A stretch of DNA of 7,513 nt from a virus (IMGVR_UViG_2740892272_000010:1-7513); one strand, 5' to 3'. Shown: positions 1 through 7,513, numbered from the stretch's first letter. Numbers and translations are program-made. The notes: generated by a model not told the origin, from the sequence alone.

Positions 1-94
1 CGGAAGAAAAAGCCAGTTCTTCGCCCCTAAATAACAGCATGATTCCAGTCCATGCAAAATCTGATTTCCAGCTCACACATACCGAGCACTGTAC

Positions 95-116
95 AAAAAA
101 CCGCCAGCCAAGGCAG
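95..116 (-). terminator. putative rho-independent terminator
   Basis: On the minus strand CTGCC-TTGGCT-GGCGG forms a 5-bp stem (one G-U pair) followed by TTTTTT (complement of the A-run at 95-100). Lies about 260 nt downstream of the tRNA array. Weak stem, so low confidence. Confidence 0.3.
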
Positions 117-376
117 TTAAGAGTGTGTTCCCGGGGTTTGCTTAGAATATTTTGTAAGTTGTCCGAAGAGATATTTACAACACCAGAATGATGAATCATC
201 AGTCCCCTGCCAGAGGTTCACTACGTAACCTGACCGACAATGCACCATTCTGGTGCTGAAAAAAGAGCACTGGAACTGCAACAAAACAACATCACAGAAC
301 AGGAGATGGTAAGGAGTCAGACATTCCCACACAATATTGTGTCAGTGCAAATAACAACCTTCGTCTCAAATCTCGC

Positions 377-451
377 TGGAGCGGGCAGCGGGAATCGAAC
401 CCGCATCATCAGCTTGGAAGGCTGAGGTAATAGCCATTATACGATGCCCGC
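377..451 (-). tRNA. tRNA-Gly (anticodon UCC)
   Basis: Reverse complement reads GCGGGCAUCGUAUAAUGGCUAUUACCUCAGCCUUCCAAGCUGAUGAUGCGGGUUCGAUUCCCGCUGCCCGCUCCA: 7-bp acceptor stem, anticodon stem UCAGC/GCUGA, loop CUUCCAA, T-loop UUCGAUU, encoded CCA. From memory it matches or nearly matches E. coli glyT. Confidence 0.85.
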
Positions 452-454
452 ATA

Positions 455-530
455 TGGTGCCGACTACCGGAATCGAACTGGTGACCTACTGATTACAAGT
501 CAGTTGCTCTGCCTGCTGAGCTAAGTCGGC
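455..530 (-). tRNA. tRNA-Thr (anticodon UGU)
   Basis: Reverse complement reads GCCGACUUAGCUCAGCAGGCAGAGCAACUGACUUGUAAUCAGUAGGUCACCAGUUCGAUUCCGGUAGUCGGCACCA: acceptor GCCGACU/AGUCGGC, anticodon loop CUUGUAA, encoded CCA. Resembles E. coli thrU from memory, with D-loop differences. Confidence 0.8.
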
Positions 531-532
531 GC

Positions 533-609
533 TGGCCCACCACCGAGGACTCGAACCTCGCACCGTCAACTTAGAAGGTTGATGCTCTATCCGGATGAGC
601 TAGTGGTGG
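533..609 (-). tRNA. tRNA-Arg (anticodon UCU, reads AGA)
   Basis: Reverse complement reads CCACCACUAGCUCAUCCGGAUAGAGCAUCAACCUUCUAAGUUGACGGUGCGAGGUUCGAGUCCUCGGUGGUGGGCCA: acceptor CCACCAC/GUGGUGG, D-stem GCUC/GAGC, anticodon stem UCAAC/GUUGA, loop CUUCUAA, T-stem CGAGG/CCUCG, encoded CCA. Confidence 0.8.
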
Positions 610-610
610 T

Positions 611-4313: not shown

Positions 4314-4417
4314 GCAGCCACACCTCTGATACAAGAACGGTAGCTGGGCCAGTTGAACGACAACCAGTTGCGCCCCCCGTCTGTGATCCTGTCGGCAATG
4401 CGGGGGCTGATGAACGC
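4310..4417 (-). pseudogene. 3' remnant of the prophage gene upstream of the helicase (probably replication initiator or helicase loader), cut by IS2
   Basis: A minus-strand frame is open from the IS2 boundary (4417) to a TGA at 4312-4310 that overlaps the helicase ATG, encoding ...AFISPRIADRITDGGRNWLSFNWPSYRSCIRGVAA*. The rest of the gene is replaced by IS2. Confidence 0.4.
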
Positions 4418-4428
4418 TGGATTTGCCC

Positions 4429-5334
4429 CTATATTTCCAGACACCTGTTATCACTTAACCCATTACTGGCTTGCTGCCGTAGATATTCCCGTGGCGAGCG
4501 ATAACCCAGTGCACTATGCGGATGCCATTCGTTATAATGCTCGAACGCCTCTGCAAGGTTCTTTGCTGCCGTTAACCCGTCTGGTTTGGGCATGACACTG
4601 ATGTAGTCACGCTTTATCGTTTTCACGAAGCTCTCTGCTATGCCGTTACTCTCCGGACTCCGCACCGCCGTGCTCTTCGGTTCAAGCCCCAACATCCGGG
4701 CAAACTGCCGTGTTTCATTAGCCCGGTAGCATGAACCATTATCCGTCAGCCACTCTACTGGAGACGCCGGAAGCTCGTTGCCGAAGCGGCGTTCCACCGC
4801 TCCCAGCATGACGTCCTGTACTGTTTCACTGTTGAAGCCGCCCGTAGTGACCGCCCAGTGCAGTGCCTCACGGTCACAGCAGTCCAGCGCGAACGTGACT
4901 CGCAGTTTTTCTCCGTTATCACAGCGGAACTCGAACCCGTCAGAGCACCATCGCTGATTACTTTCTTTCACAGCCACTCTGCCTGTATGTGCCCGTTTCG
5001 ATGGCGGTACAGCAGGTTTTCGCTCAAGCAACAGCGCATTCTGGCGCATGATCCGGTAAACACGTTTGGCATTGATCGCAGGCATACCATCAAGTTCTGC
5101 CTGTCTGCGAAGCAGCGCCCATACCCGACGATAACCATACGTGGGCAGCTCTCCGATAACATGGTGTATACGGAGAAGCACATCCGTATCATCAGTGTGA
5201 CGACTGCGGCGGCCATCCATCCAGTCATCGGTTCGTCTGAGAATGACGTGCAACTGCGCACGCGACACCCGGAGACAACGGCTGACTAAGCTTACTCCCC
5301 ATCCCCGGGCAATAAGGGCGCGTGCGCTATCCAC
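4429..5334 (-). CDS. insD: IS2 transposase InsD (orfB, DDE integrase domain)
   Basis: 301-aa frame [34 protein letters not shown]...[20 protein letters not shown] matches IS2 InsD from memory; GTG start next to the frameshift window. Confidence 0.9.
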
Positions 5335-5577
5335 TTTTTTGCCCGTCCATATTCAACGGCTTCTTTGAGGAGTTCATTTTCCATCGTTTTCTTGCCGAGC
5401 AGGCGCTGGAGTTCTTTAATCTGCTTCATGGCGGCAGCAAGTTCAGAGGCAGGAACAACCTGTTCTCCGGCGGCCACAGCAGTAAGACTTCCTTCCTGGT
5501 ATTGCTTACGCCAGAGAAATAACTGGCTGGCTGCTACACCATGTTGCCGGGCAACGAGGGAGACCGTCATCCCCGGT
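5292..5577 (-). pseudogene. insC: IS2 InsC (orfA) lacking its N-terminal ~28 codons
   Basis: Frame encodes ...[80 protein letters not shown]..., the C-terminal ~93 aa of InsC. The expected N-terminus (MIDVLGPEKRRR...) and its upstream sequence are replaced by the hchA 3' end. Confidence 0.8.
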
Positions 5578-5585
5578 AACAGGGA

Positions 5586-6437
5586 TTAATCCGCATAAGC
5601 TGCCAGCATTTCCTGCGCCGCCAGTTTACCCAACGCATTCGCTGCGAAAGGACTGTCGCCGGTGAGAACTTTACGGTCCTTATGTACTCGCCCGGTGATG
5701 TCGTCATTAATAATGTTCATGCCCATTTTCTTCAGCTCTTCGCCGAAGTACCAGGTGAGATGACCCGGCATATAGCCTATCTCTGGCGTTTGTTTGTCTG
5801 CGGCGTCTGGGAATGCGCAAATGGAATAACCATTCAGTGGGTTATCGCCGTGGCGAAGCGCCAGAAAAGCCGCCGGGCCGTGGCAAAGGGAGATAACAAA
5901 ACGGTCATTTTTGATTGCCCACTGCAAAGCAGCAGCTACGTCCTGGCTTTCTGGTAAACCAATAAGTGCGCCATGACCACCAGGAACAAAGATTGCTGCA
6001 TATTCGCTATCAGCGTTGAGGCTGGCGACAACATCCGCGAGTTTCTTCGGATTGCGGAACAACGATTTATGCTGCTCAAAGAATGGCATTACTTTTTCAT
6101 CTTTGTGCGGCATAGCCCAGTATTCAAACTTGGTCATCAGACCGGAAATGGTCGCCACTTCGAATTCGAAACCAGCAGCATGGAGATGATACAACGGCAG
6201 CAACGTTTCAATCGGATGGTTACCGGTCGAGAACAGTTTTCCGTTATCGGTTGGCAAATAACGTTCGTCCGCGGCGATCACCAGAATTTTATGCTTACCG
6301 CGATACGGTTTTGGATAGTCCACGCCATCAAGATCAGAGACGGGACTGGTATATTGGCTAAGCGAATATTCTGAAGGGAAGAATGCATTATCTTCAGCAA
6401 TATCGACCTGCGGATTTTTACTTGTTTGAACAGTCAT
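5586..6437 (-). CDS. hchA: Hsp31 / glyoxalase III / protein deglycase HchA (DJ-1/PfpI family)
   Basis: 283-aa protein MTVQTSKNPQVDIAEDNAFFPSEYSLSQYTSPVSDLDGVDYPKPYRGKHKILVIAADERYL...ISLCHGPAAFLA... matches E. coli HchA almost exactly from memory. AAGGA Shine-Dalgarno 7 nt upstream of the ATG at 6437. Confidence 0.95.
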   Translation of the reverse strand: MTVQTSKNPQVDIAEDNAFFPSEYSLSQYTSPVSDLDGVDYPKPYRGKHKILVIAADERYLPTDNGKLFSTGNHPIETLLPLYHLHAAGFEFEVATISGLMTKFEYWAMPHKDEKVMPFFEQHKSLFRNPKKLADVVASLNADSEYAAIFVPGGHGALIGLPESQDVAAALQWAIKNDRFVISLCHGPAAFLALRHGDNPLNGYSICAFPDAADKQTPEIGYMPGHLTWYFGEELKKMGMNIINDDITGRVHKDRKVLTGDSPFAANALGKLAAQEMLAAYAD

Positions 6438-7027
6438 AGTGTATTCCTTATTGTTGCTTAGTTAGGGTAGTCACTATATTTGCGACTGAGCTGGTCGCTA
6501 TTTTTAACCAGTCTGGAAAATTGAGTCAATATATCGAAAGCGGTAGTCGGCGGGTGTAAGTATGTAATGATGATGCTGCACTGGTGTTGAATATTATTCA
6601 CGCCAAATTTTCCTTATTGAGCAACGTCGTCGCAAGTGGCCTCAATGATTTTAGGCCATTATCAAAGGTACGGGGCGGCGGGGAGAGATTTAGTGCTGTG
6701 AAATATTGTGGTACTGATGAATATTTATATCGCGGATTGGTAGAGAAAAGATTATTTCATGCACTATTTTTGCAAATATTTCTATATGGGAAGCGTGTTT
6801 GTTACGGATTAATTCATAAAGAAATGCATTTGGGTGTTGGTTTGAAGAGTCGCTGGTTGATGTTATTGTGCCAGGAGGGGCAGGGTAAGGTGCTGTATCG
6901 ATATGCATTGGCAATTGCGTGTGCCGCAGATGGAGATGAAATGCCAATAAAAAAGCCTGAATTCGATGAGGGACGAACTCAGGCTAGTGTTTAGTTTTAC
7001 AGTAACACGCCGCAGCACGTTGGCTGA

Positions 7028-7399
7028 TTAGAACTGGTAGACTAAGCCCACACCAACAACGTCATCTGTTGCGATGCCATTGTTGTCATAGAAATCGTCA
7101 TCTTTATCCAACAAGTTTATTTTATAGTCAACATATGTTGAGAAGTTCTTATTGAAATAGTAGGTCGCTCCAATTTCAACATAGTTGACCAGATCCTGAT
7201 CAACATACTCCTGATGACCATTGTTGTTATAGTCGTTACCGCCGAGGTCTTTGCCTTTTGAATAAACATATGCAAGAGATGGGCGCAGACCAAAATCGAA
7301 CTGATACTGTGCTACAGCTTCAAAGTTCTGGGTTTTATTTGCGATACCCACATTACCATATGGTGTCATATTGCGGGTTTCAGCATACATCATTGCAAG
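7028..7399 (-). pseudogene. yedS: C-terminal fragment of an OmpC/OmpF-family general porin (yedS-like), truncated upstream by IS1
   Basis: Frame ends with the porin C-terminal signature ...[38 protein letters not shown]. Only about 123 codons are present before the IS1 end at 7400. Its position directly upstream of hchA on the same strand matches the K-12 yedS-hchA arrangement, so the symbol is assigned by synteny and is tentative. Confidence 0.6.
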
Positions 7400-7513
7400 G
7401 GTAATGACTCCAACTTATTGATAGTGTTTTATGTTCAGATAATGCCCGATGACTTTGTCATGCAGCTCCACCGATTTTGAGAACGACAGCGACTTCCGTC
7501 CCAGCCGTGCCAG
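7400..7513 (-). mobile_element. IS1 (partial; right end with terminal inverted repeat, continues past the window edge)
   Basis: Plus strand 7400-7513 (GGTAATGACTCCAACTTATTGATAGTGTTTTATGTTCAGATAATGCCCGATGAC...) is the reverse complement of the IS1 right end, including the insB 3' region, as I recall it. Confidence 0.85.

Follow-up and report, generated by a model that had tools for sequence, protein, structure and literature searches.

How an intact hchA came to lie between an interrupted yedS and a truncated IS2 that leads into phage genes, and what kind of genome would carry such an order, is the question raised by the 7,513-nucleotide stretch analyzed here (IMGVR_UViG_2740892272_000010:1-7513; hereafter the window). 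The initial annotation, which gave the Escherichia coli K-12 order correctly as yedS-hchA-hprS-hprR, had described hchA followed by a truncated insertion sequence (IS) IS2 and a prophage remnant, and had proposed an IS-rich, Shigella-like source. All of these parts are present, and their coordinates have been sharpened (Table 1). The K-12 neighbourhood contains the same backbone genes, but hchA has no IS on either side there and hprS/hprR follow directly after a terminator-bearing spacer.

Table 1. Features of the 7,513-nucleotide window and the evidence for each.
Feature	Position	Strand	Evidence
Prophage non-coding stretch between tRNA cluster and lysis genes	1-376	minus	99.96%, collinear with S. 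sonnei loci L023-L031
Phage tRNA cluster Gly(TCC), Thr(TGT), Arg(TCT), Met/Ile-type(CAT)	377-687	minus	ARAGORN; Rfam 56-70 bits
ORF6N-domain (antirepressor-like) gene, 187 aa	877-1440	minus	Pfam PF10543, E=9e-21
Small-RNA control region between Q and ORF6N	1478-1893	minus	Rfam, above gathering score
sRNA-Xcc1	1478-1561	minus	Rfam
C4 antisense RNA	1695-1778	minus	Rfam
isrK	1804-1880	minus	Rfam
c4 a1b1 targets	1841-1893	minus	Rfam
Phage antiterminator Q (Phage_antitermQ), 128 aa	1921-2307	minus	Pfam PF06530, E=2e-52
RusA Holliday-junction resolvase, 123 aa	2297-2668	minus	Pfam PF05866
Phage hypothetical gene, 85 aa	2668-2925	minus	Called in all S. sonnei loci listed
DnaB-type replicative helicase, 463 aa, intact	2922-4313	minus	Pfam DnaB_C, E=8e-73
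dnaC-like helicase-loader gene (dnaC'), last ~104 bp	4314-4417	minus	phiP27 and E. coli prophage annotation
IS2 without left 171 bp (IS2Δ)	4418-5577	minus	97.7-99.9% over 1160 bp against many IS2 copies
Native hchA 3' flank, 8 bases left	5578-5585		Comparison with 53G and locus L033
hchA (glyoxalase III / deglycase), intact, 283 aa	5586-6437	minus	Pfam DJ-1_PfpI
Native hchA-yedS intergenic region	6438-7027		Match to E. coli backbone
yedS (OmpC-like porin) 3' fragment	7028-7399	minus	Pfam Porin_1, profile positions 229-337 of 337
IS1 right end; window stops within element	7400-7513	minus	114/114 against IS1 copies in S. sonnei loci

Origin of the window

The window is very probably a piece of S. 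sonnei-type chromosome that is decaying through ISs, by an IS1 event, an IS2 event and an event involving a prophage IS2, and its clade of origin is most likely a lineage III-like S. sonnei carrying IS2Δ beside hchA. By nucleotide comparison, three clone-specific junctions are common to S. sonnei assemblies, including 53G and the lineage III strain FORC_011. 53G and FORC_011 are among the strains with the yedS-IS1 junction and its 121-aa gene fragment (7028-7393). S. sonnei loci L009, L033-35, L039-42, L044 and L050 have an identical IS2Δ-hchA joint, and the dnaC'-IS2 joint is shared by at least 10 complete genomes and 10 IMG/VR proviruses. Positions 1-5577 differ from the prophage plus IS2 of S. 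sonnei 53G (HE616528.1; PMC5447701) and of at least eight other genomes at two positions only, which against 53G are 88 and 5207; the A at 88 is private to the window. The hchA side of the window, 5476-7513, shows no difference from the corresponding locus in S. sonnei strains with IS2Δ, FORC_011 among them.

An ordinary commensal or pathogenic E. coli, in which IS1 and IS2 near hchA would be a lineage polymorphism with no genome-wide IS expansion, is a highly improbable source. IS2 has independently hit this neighbourhood in several non-Shigella E. coli, for instance in hprR of N1024, in the hchA-hprS spacer of LZYWN_4, 4 bp from the S. sonnei site, and at two different sites of yedS in NT1F10 and AHM8C212RI, and yedS is already a pseudogene in K-12. 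Nevertheless, each of the three exact junctions was found in 0 of 5426 complete E. coli genomes, whereas in S. sonnei genomes they occur with flanks of 99.96-100% identity, and two mismatches in 5577 bp of prophage segment indicate the same clone. A single apparent match to the IS2Δ-hchA junction, in LZYWN_4, was set aside as a separate full-length IS2 insertion. In none of the 5426 genomes did a single place match 80% or more of the window, and 4723 of them retained an uninterrupted hchA-yedS backbone; this arrangement is not ancestral. The suggestion of a Shigella-like source is supported.

The proposal of an IS-rich genome also agrees with published work on S. sonnei. Median IS copy numbers are 339 for Shigella reference chromosomes vs 32 for other E. 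coli, the ISMapper median for S. sonnei is 286 IS sites per chromosome, and the five expanded elements include IS1 and IS2 (PMC7373316). IS-driven decay and rearrangement in Shigella is already known, and the locus is a known kind of such decay, nothing new. It serves as a worked example of documented Shigella processes, namely IS1/IS2 expansion, loss of a dispensable outer-membrane gene, prophage decay and recombination between IS copies.

Insertion sequences at yedS and hchA

IS1 entered yedS by simple insertion, duplicating 9 bp of the target and splitting the gene, and the break attributed to IS1 by the initial annotation lies at 7399/7400. Positions 7391-7399 are one copy of the duplication, CTTGCAATG. 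The IS1 inverted repeat GGTAATGACTCCAACTTATTGAT starts at 7400, followed by the insB 3' end from 7415, and the matching sequence is annotated as IS1A in E. coli genomes. A complete IS1 is about 768 bp long and makes a 9-bp target-site duplication. At the identical site in S. sonnei locus L033, IS1 has CTTGCAATG on both sides and the two halves of yedS are retained. Complete S. sonnei genomes have the remaining half just past IS1. The porin gene split by this transposition is dispensable.

Both ISs had been described as gene-truncating. This stands for IS1 in yedS, while IS2 spares hchA, ending 8 bp downstream of its stop codon, and the gene truncated at IS2 is the prophage dnaC-like gene. Truncation of hchA by IS2 was ruled out: hchA is intact and IS2 itself is truncated. 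HchA is identical to K-12 HchA at 281/282 residues, and the hchA backbone is 99.8% identical to that of E. coli. In the hchA-yedS intergenic region, a doubtful plus-strand ORF of 125/136 aa (6584/6617-6994) was also seen.

A complete IS2 has 1331 bp and both terminal inverted repeats. In IS2Δ the right inverted repeat begins at 4418 and the left one is absent, so that the element cannot transpose. Its insD is intact (4429-5334, 301 aa; Pfam HTH_21, rve, rve_3), and insC' (5292-5570) lacks the first 29 codons and keeps the C-terminal part of HTH_Tnp_1. To judge from its sequence, the IS2 of the window is a remnant, not a functional element. Beyond the 8 native bases after hchA, 81 bp of the hchA-hprS spacer are replaced by IS2Δ, and this lost segment included the shared hchA/hprS terminator hairpin, a 12-bp stem then U6 (the K-12 spacer has 107 bp; the fold of the 105-nt spacer gives z=-3.2). 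No 5-bp target duplication was found for the window IS2, which has lost its left flank next to hchA; the independent IS2 of LZYWN_4, by comparison, has TGGCG at both sides. The endpoints of the deletion at the hchA side are visible by comparison with 53G, and the joint carries a 2-bp microhomology (AC). An intact IS2 probably inserted into the hchA-hprS spacer. A later deletion of ~257 bp took its left 171 bp, a presumed 5-bp target duplication and the 81 bp of spacer with the terminator, leaving an immobile, one-ended IS2 8 bp past the hchA stop.

The hchA loci of FORC_011 (CP010829.1) and CP022457.1 share most of this layout. In both, IS1 interrupts yedS at the nucleotide seen in the window and with an identical 9-bp duplication; hchA is whole, and 8 bp past its stop codon begins an IS2 that lacks the left 171 bp. 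However, their IS2Δ is of the common type, with 26 differences from that of the window, and its right end meets hprS/hprR, whereas that of the window meets prophage dnaC'/dnaB.

The prophage remnant and its own IS2

The phage part of the window (1-4417) contains a lambdoid/phiP27-like replication and late-regulation module with dnaC'-dnaB, rusA, Q and four tRNAs, and 2664-4417 is 94.4% identical to phage phiP27. The exact 463-aa DnaB protein occurs in 3506 collection blocks, of which all long contigs listed resemble S. sonnei 53G both in layout and in sequence. The same 187-aa ORF6N gene is called in S. sonnei loci, and the 85-aa phage gene has no Pfam match. No gene is called in the equivalent of 1-376 in S. 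sonnei records L023-L031, and the lysis genes next to it in S. sonnei genomes fall outside the window. The prophage is a remnant and not complete: the dnaC-like match stops exactly at the IS2 right end, and the rest of this gene and the earlier prophage genes are missing.

In S. sonnei, the IS2 in the dnaC-like gene of this phiP27-like prophage is of a different sequence type and lies elsewhere in the chromosome. The 53G prophage (HE616528.1, ~3.07 Mb) has the IS2 right end at the same dnaC-like position and the same order of dnaB, rusA, Q, ORF6N and tRNAs, but its IS2 is full length (1331 bp) and the left end meets a 459-aa gene, not hchA. The ends of this copy (GTTGC vs GCGTT) show no target duplication, so that it marks an older IS2-mediated rearrangement in which the early half of the prophage was lost. 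Non-phage DNA lies beyond the far end of the prophage IS2 in S. sonnei genomes, and in several of those listed an IS4-type transposase gene comes after a shortened portal gene.

The joint between hchA, IS2 and the prophage

In every long S. sonnei contig listed, hchA-IS2Δ-hprS and the 459-aa gene-IS2-prophage are two separate loci, whereas the window joins the hchA junction to the IS2 body of the prophage copy. Its IS2 carries prophage-type alleles at 24 sites (4444-4972) and C at 5475, and the common type at 5207; at the prophage-type sites, all hchA-side IS2Δ copies and all other S. sonnei IS2s examined outside the prophage have the alternative alleles. In CP022457.1 and 53G the two IS2 copies are inverted relative to each other, at a distance of ~0.82-0.86 Mb. 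In CP022457.1 the hchA locus (L039) is forward and the prophage locus (L027) reversed, and therefore an inversion between them predicts exactly the joint of the window.

We lean modestly towards homologous recombination between IS2Δ and the prophage IS2 in the source strain as the origin of the joint, giving an inversion. The exchange would have fallen within the last ~100 bp of shared IS2 sequence (5476-5577), and recombination would have inverted the intervening segment to create the order hchA-IS2(hybrid)-dnaC'-dnaB. On Shigella branches, some of them terminal, lie 103 of 114 reconstructed inversions, and IS-mediated inversions are frequent in this group (PMC8072062). IS1/IS2 expansion, gene disruption and inversion between inverted ISs, as seen here, are likewise described by Hawkey et al. 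2020 (PMC7373316) and Seferbekova et al. 2021 (PMC8072062); the joint itself was not found in the text of either paper or in the assemblies inspected. Two points weigh against a simple event. Since position 5207 is C in the window vs T in 10 of 11 prophage copies covering this site, a single clean crossover is insufficient, and a conversion patch or assembler bubble-popping is needed. In addition, on the K-12 map, which we take as a guide to the inversion ends, hchA lies at 2.03 Mb and the csiD region at 2.79 Mb; from these positions the inversion would lie within one replichore, which counts against it. Inversions inside one replichore are usually counter-selected.

A real adjacency produced by another route, either gene conversion of IS2Δ plus a further rearrangement, or duplication or translocation of the prophage segment, appears improbable. 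The mosaic alleles require at least one conversion tract in any case, and the prophage IS2 without target duplication was party to earlier rearrangements. Nevertheless, a single reciprocal exchange between inverted repeats would take fewer steps, and there is no evidence of duplication in the 7.5 kb.

It is also possible, though rather unlikely, that a short-read assembler switched path in the ~600 bp common to both IS2 copies and that the source has the usual S. sonnei layout. The joint occurs in no complete genome among the long contigs listed, a listing that collapses similar places; no other assembly with it was found, and junction scans of genome, metagenome and viral contigs gave 0 matches. 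With its 7.5 kb the window is probably one entire short-read contig bounded by repeats; its right end lies 114 bp into IS1, and the draft contig L053 ends 31 bp from its left end. Switching between copies within repeats is seen in two IMG/VR draft contigs of this prophage: in L053 the IS2 alleles are of the common type beyond 4972, an N marks the IS2 end and the contig runs on into IS21, and L061 switches at 4596 and fuses the phage tRNA-Gly to chromosomal glyT-thrT-tufB. The alleles of the window are themselves mosaic, being prophage-type to 4972, common at 5207 and prophage-type at 5475 before the hchA joint. Against such a switch, of the S. sonnei IS2s examined the prophage copy alone has C at 5475, and because this site is only 102 bp from the joint, single reads or long k-mers would link it to hchA. 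With reads of at least 150 nt or k >102, graph ambiguity cannot create this linkage, and majority bubble-popping would give G at 5475, as in L053. A modern paired-end assembler makes such a join only with read pairs that reach from the variant region across to hchA. A path switch would leave the S. sonnei origin, the IS1 in yedS and the truncation of the IS2 next to hchA unaffected.

Returning to recombination in the source strain, there is an even chance that the window is one breakpoint of a strain-specific inversion of ~0.85 Mb between the full prophage IS2 and a transposition-dead IS2 stump. If so, it would be one more structural variant in a pathogen for which worldwide lineage tracking rests almost wholly on SNPs, immobile IS fragments would be shown still to drive large chromosome rearrangements, and a terminator-less hchA would stand directly upstream of prophage replication and late-control genes in the same orientation. 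In practice, a contig crossing an IS copy may stand for a true strain-specific inversion or for an assembler path switch, and the diagnostic SNPs inside the IS (4444-4972, 5207, 5475) separate the two.

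Origin and composition of the locus

Exact-protein look-ups placed the window among Shigella sonnei assemblies. Over positions 1-5577, mismatches are confined to 88 and 5207 in comparison with the prophage and IS2 of strain 53G (HE616528.1), which belongs to lineage II (PMC5447701), and with those of at least eight more closed genomes. Positions 5476-7513 match without a difference the hchA locus in another group of S. sonnei assemblies, including FORC_011 (CP010829.1) of lineage IIIc (PMC5447701). The ORFs crossing the private SNP at 88, a possible edge-partial gene among them, had no protein on record. 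None of the 5426 complete Escherichia coli genomes searched contained 80% or more of the window, and searches of these genomes for the three junctions with centred 141-bp probes gave no match spanning the yedS-IS1 or the dnaC'-IS2 junction.

Every component comes from a known family, namely IS1, an IS2 remnant, a phiP27-like prophage remnant and the E. coli hchA-yedS backbone, and the processes are those already described for genome decay in Shigella, with nothing new in kind. The sole item without a match elsewhere is the specific, putative hchA-IS2-prophage joint. All genes lie on the minus strand, so that the yedS fragment, hchA, insC'D, dnaB, rusA and Q are co-oriented.

Features of the window and their positions
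Feature	Position	Strand	Source
Prophage segment	1-4417	minus	
tRNA cluster, four genes: Gly-TCC, Thr-TGT, Arg-TCT, CAT anticodon (Met or Ile2)	377-687	minus	
ORF6N antirepressor-like gene	877-1440	minus	
Small-RNA region	1478-1893	minus	Rfam
sRNA-Xcc1	1478-1561	minus	Rfam
C4 antisense RNA	1695-1778	minus	Rfam
isrK	1804-1880	minus	Rfam
c4 a1b1 target sites	1841-1893	minus	Rfam
Q	1921-2307	minus	
rusA	2297-2668	minus	
85-aa gene	between rusA and DnaB-type helicase gene	minus	
DnaB-type helicase, 463 aa	2922-4313	minus	
dnaC-like loader gene, last ~104 bp only	directly before IS2 at 4418	minus	
IS2 without left end	4418-5577	minus	
Native flank, 8 bp	5578-5585		
hchA, intact	5586-6437	minus	
Native hchA-yedS spacer	between hchA and yedS fragment		
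yedS porin gene, 3' 372 bp	7028-7399	minus	
IS1, first 114 bp; window stops inside element	7400-7513	minus	

Within the prophage segment, the small-RNA region is located between Q and the ORF6N gene, upstream of the latter. Taken together, and by analogy, its small RNAs resemble an immI-like switch of P1/P7 or an IsrK-type small-RNA switch of Gifsy-1. The four phage tRNA genes are tightly clustered downstream of Q, an arrangement also seen in Stx-type lambdoid phages.

Insertion sequences around hchA

The K-12 order yedS-hchA-hprS/hprR given in the initial annotation is correct: MG1655 has drpB, rseX, yedS (a pseudogene), hchA, hprS and hprR. HchA of the window is identical to the K-12 protein at 281 of 282 residues. 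The backbone at 5578-7399 shares 99.8% identity with many E. coli and is uninterrupted in 4723 of the 5426 complete genomes; E. coli homology begins exactly at 5578 and ends at 7399, which are the two IS boundaries.

The proposal that yedS is cut by IS1 was borne out by this stop at 7399 and by the identity of the terminal 114 bp (114/114) to other IS1 copies. In the S. sonnei hchA loci bearing the IS2 remnant, a complete IS1 splits yedS, with the 9-bp duplication CTTGCAATG on both sides and the 5' half of yedS beyond it, indicating that the IS1 event was a plain insertion. IS2, too, sits at a gene-truncating junction, but the gene it truncates is not hchA; IS2 is itself cut, and its opposite side interrupts the prophage dnaC-like gene. 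Compared with the full copy in 53G, the IS2 stretch retains 1160 of 1331 bp and lacks the left 171 bp, and with them the left inverted repeat and 29 codons at the start of insC. Because both the left end and a target duplication are missing, it is not a complete element and should be called an IS2 remnant.

In 53G and two other assemblies, IS1 is present and IS2 is absent beside hchA, and the hchA-hprS spacer measures 107 bp. Relative to this spacer (11809-11915 of the compared locus L036), 81 bp are replaced in the allele with the IS2 remnant. The replaced spacer holds a hairpin with a 12-bp stem followed by U6, which was revealed by folding and had been skipped by a consensus terminator scan because its loop is longer than the limit of the scan. 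It looks like a terminator common to the convergent hchA and hprS. With this putative terminator removed, transcription might conceivably run on from hchA into IS2 and the prophage genes, given the gene arrangement. The simplest history would be that IS2 entered the hchA-hprS spacer, duplicating an inferred GTACT, and that ~257 bp across its left end were deleted later; the joint shows a 2-bp AC microhomology.

Swine E. coli LZYWN_4 (L065, 1390-2840) also carries IS2 in the hchA-hprS spacer, oriented like the S. sonnei insertion. Among the 5426 E. coli genomes it gave the one apparent match to the junction of hchA and the IS2 remnant. The match was rejected, as was common ancestry of the two insertions, because the element is a separate full-length IS2 located 4 bp away with its own TGGCG target duplication rather than the inferred GTACT. 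Two independent insertions point to a possible local hot spot for IS2 immediately beyond the putative hchA-hprS terminator.

Mobile elements repeatedly strike the hchA neighbourhood elsewhere in E. coli. IS2 is found in hprR of N1024 and, at two different sites, inside yedS of the pig and chicken strains NT1F10 and AHM8C212RI. The latter two led to the rejection of the E. coli matches H5-H26 as cases of IS2 beside hchA, as their IS2 lies within yedS and the search had joined pieces out of order. The IS2 insertions in yedS and its pseudogene state in K-12 suggest that this gene is dispensable and often lost.

Shigella reference chromosomes contain a median of 339 IS copies, compared with 32 in other E. 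coli, and S. sonnei a median of 286 IS sites per chromosome by ISMapper; the expanded elements are IS1, IS2, IS4, IS600 and IS911 (PMC7373316). The supplement of that study has no entry for insertion sites in hchA, yedS or hprS. In 53G, the 21 kb round the prophage include three IS1, one IS2, one IS4-type and one IS3-family element. The S. sonnei match, the published counts and this local density support the initial reading of an IS-rich, Shigella-like source. Neither a low IS number nor an ancestral arrangement was found, the counts being those of S. sonnei rather than of the source genome.

The hybrid IS2 and its joint

None of the long S. sonnei contigs displayed holds the window in one piece; in each, its two halves occupy separate places about 0.82-0.86 Mb apart. 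The first place reads hchA, IS2 remnant, hprS and hprR; the second reads a 459-aa gene, a full IS2 and then dnaC'-dnaB. Look-ups of insC', insD, DnaB, the 121-aa porin fragment and a 125-aa hypothetical ORF returned these two standard layouts only among the long contigs displayed, which covered the 24 blocks with the longest contigs, similar neighbourhoods being collapsed. Exact-pattern searches for the hchA joint, alone or together with C at 5475, gave zero matches in genome_contigs, metagenome_contigs and viral_contigs, GTDB probably holding no separate S. sonnei representative.

Comparison of window 4418-5577 with the loci L013-L022 distinguished two main IS2 types with ~24 differences in the right-hand 555 bp. 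The hchA-side copy is of the common type, from which the prophage copy differs at 24 sites in 4444-4972 as well as at 5207 (T) and 5475 (C). InsD encoded by the window-type IS2 occurs in 6584 collection blocks, indicating a common natural variant rather than a degenerate copy. The window combines the hchA joint at 5577/5578 with prophage alleles at 4444-4972 and 5475. Judged from these alleles, its IS2 is a hybrid whose exchange point would lie within 5476-5577.

A real recombinant joint is somewhat favoured as the explanation. In CP022457.1, the two IS2 copies are inverted relative to each other (L039 forward, L027 reversed), and a reciprocal exchange by homologous recombination would invert the intervening segment and form the joint of the window and its reciprocal. 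IS-mediated inversions are common in Shigella, terminal branches included (PMC8072062). Nevertheless, such an inversion would fall within one replichore, as inferred from K-12 map positions, which counts against it. Moreover, the window has C at 5207, where T is found in 10 of the 11 prophage copies reaching this site, so that a single crossover cannot account for all sites.

An assembly chimera, in which the path switched between IS2 copies, is possible but rather unlikely. The window is probably one entire short-read contig, being only 7.5 kb long with one end inside IS1, and its other end is 31 bp from the end of the draft contig L053. Drafts of the same prophage do swap IS2 copies: L053 takes the common alleles past 4972, has N at the IS2 end and continues into IS21, and the draft contig L061 changes IS2 type at 4596 and also has the phage tRNA-Gly fused to chromosomal glyT-thrT-tufB. 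In favour of a real joint, no S. sonnei IS2 inspected other than the prophage copy has C at 5475, and this site is 102 bp from the hchA joint, within reach of single reads. Majority bubble-popping would have yielded G at 5475, as in L053, and it would also turn a lone T at 5207 into C, as observed. Formation of a real joint by other routes appears improbable.

The prophage IS2 of 53G (L025, 8541-9930) has no 5-bp target duplication, with GTTGC on one side and GCGTT on the other, and its left neighbour is the non-phage 459-aa gene. In all S. sonnei examined, this IS2 therefore already marks an older IS2-associated rearrangement, through which the prophage lost its early half.

The IMG/VR 'viral' contigs L053 (at 5608-7910) and L061 (at 1-1129 and 5170-5537) of this prophage appear to be chimeric drafts.
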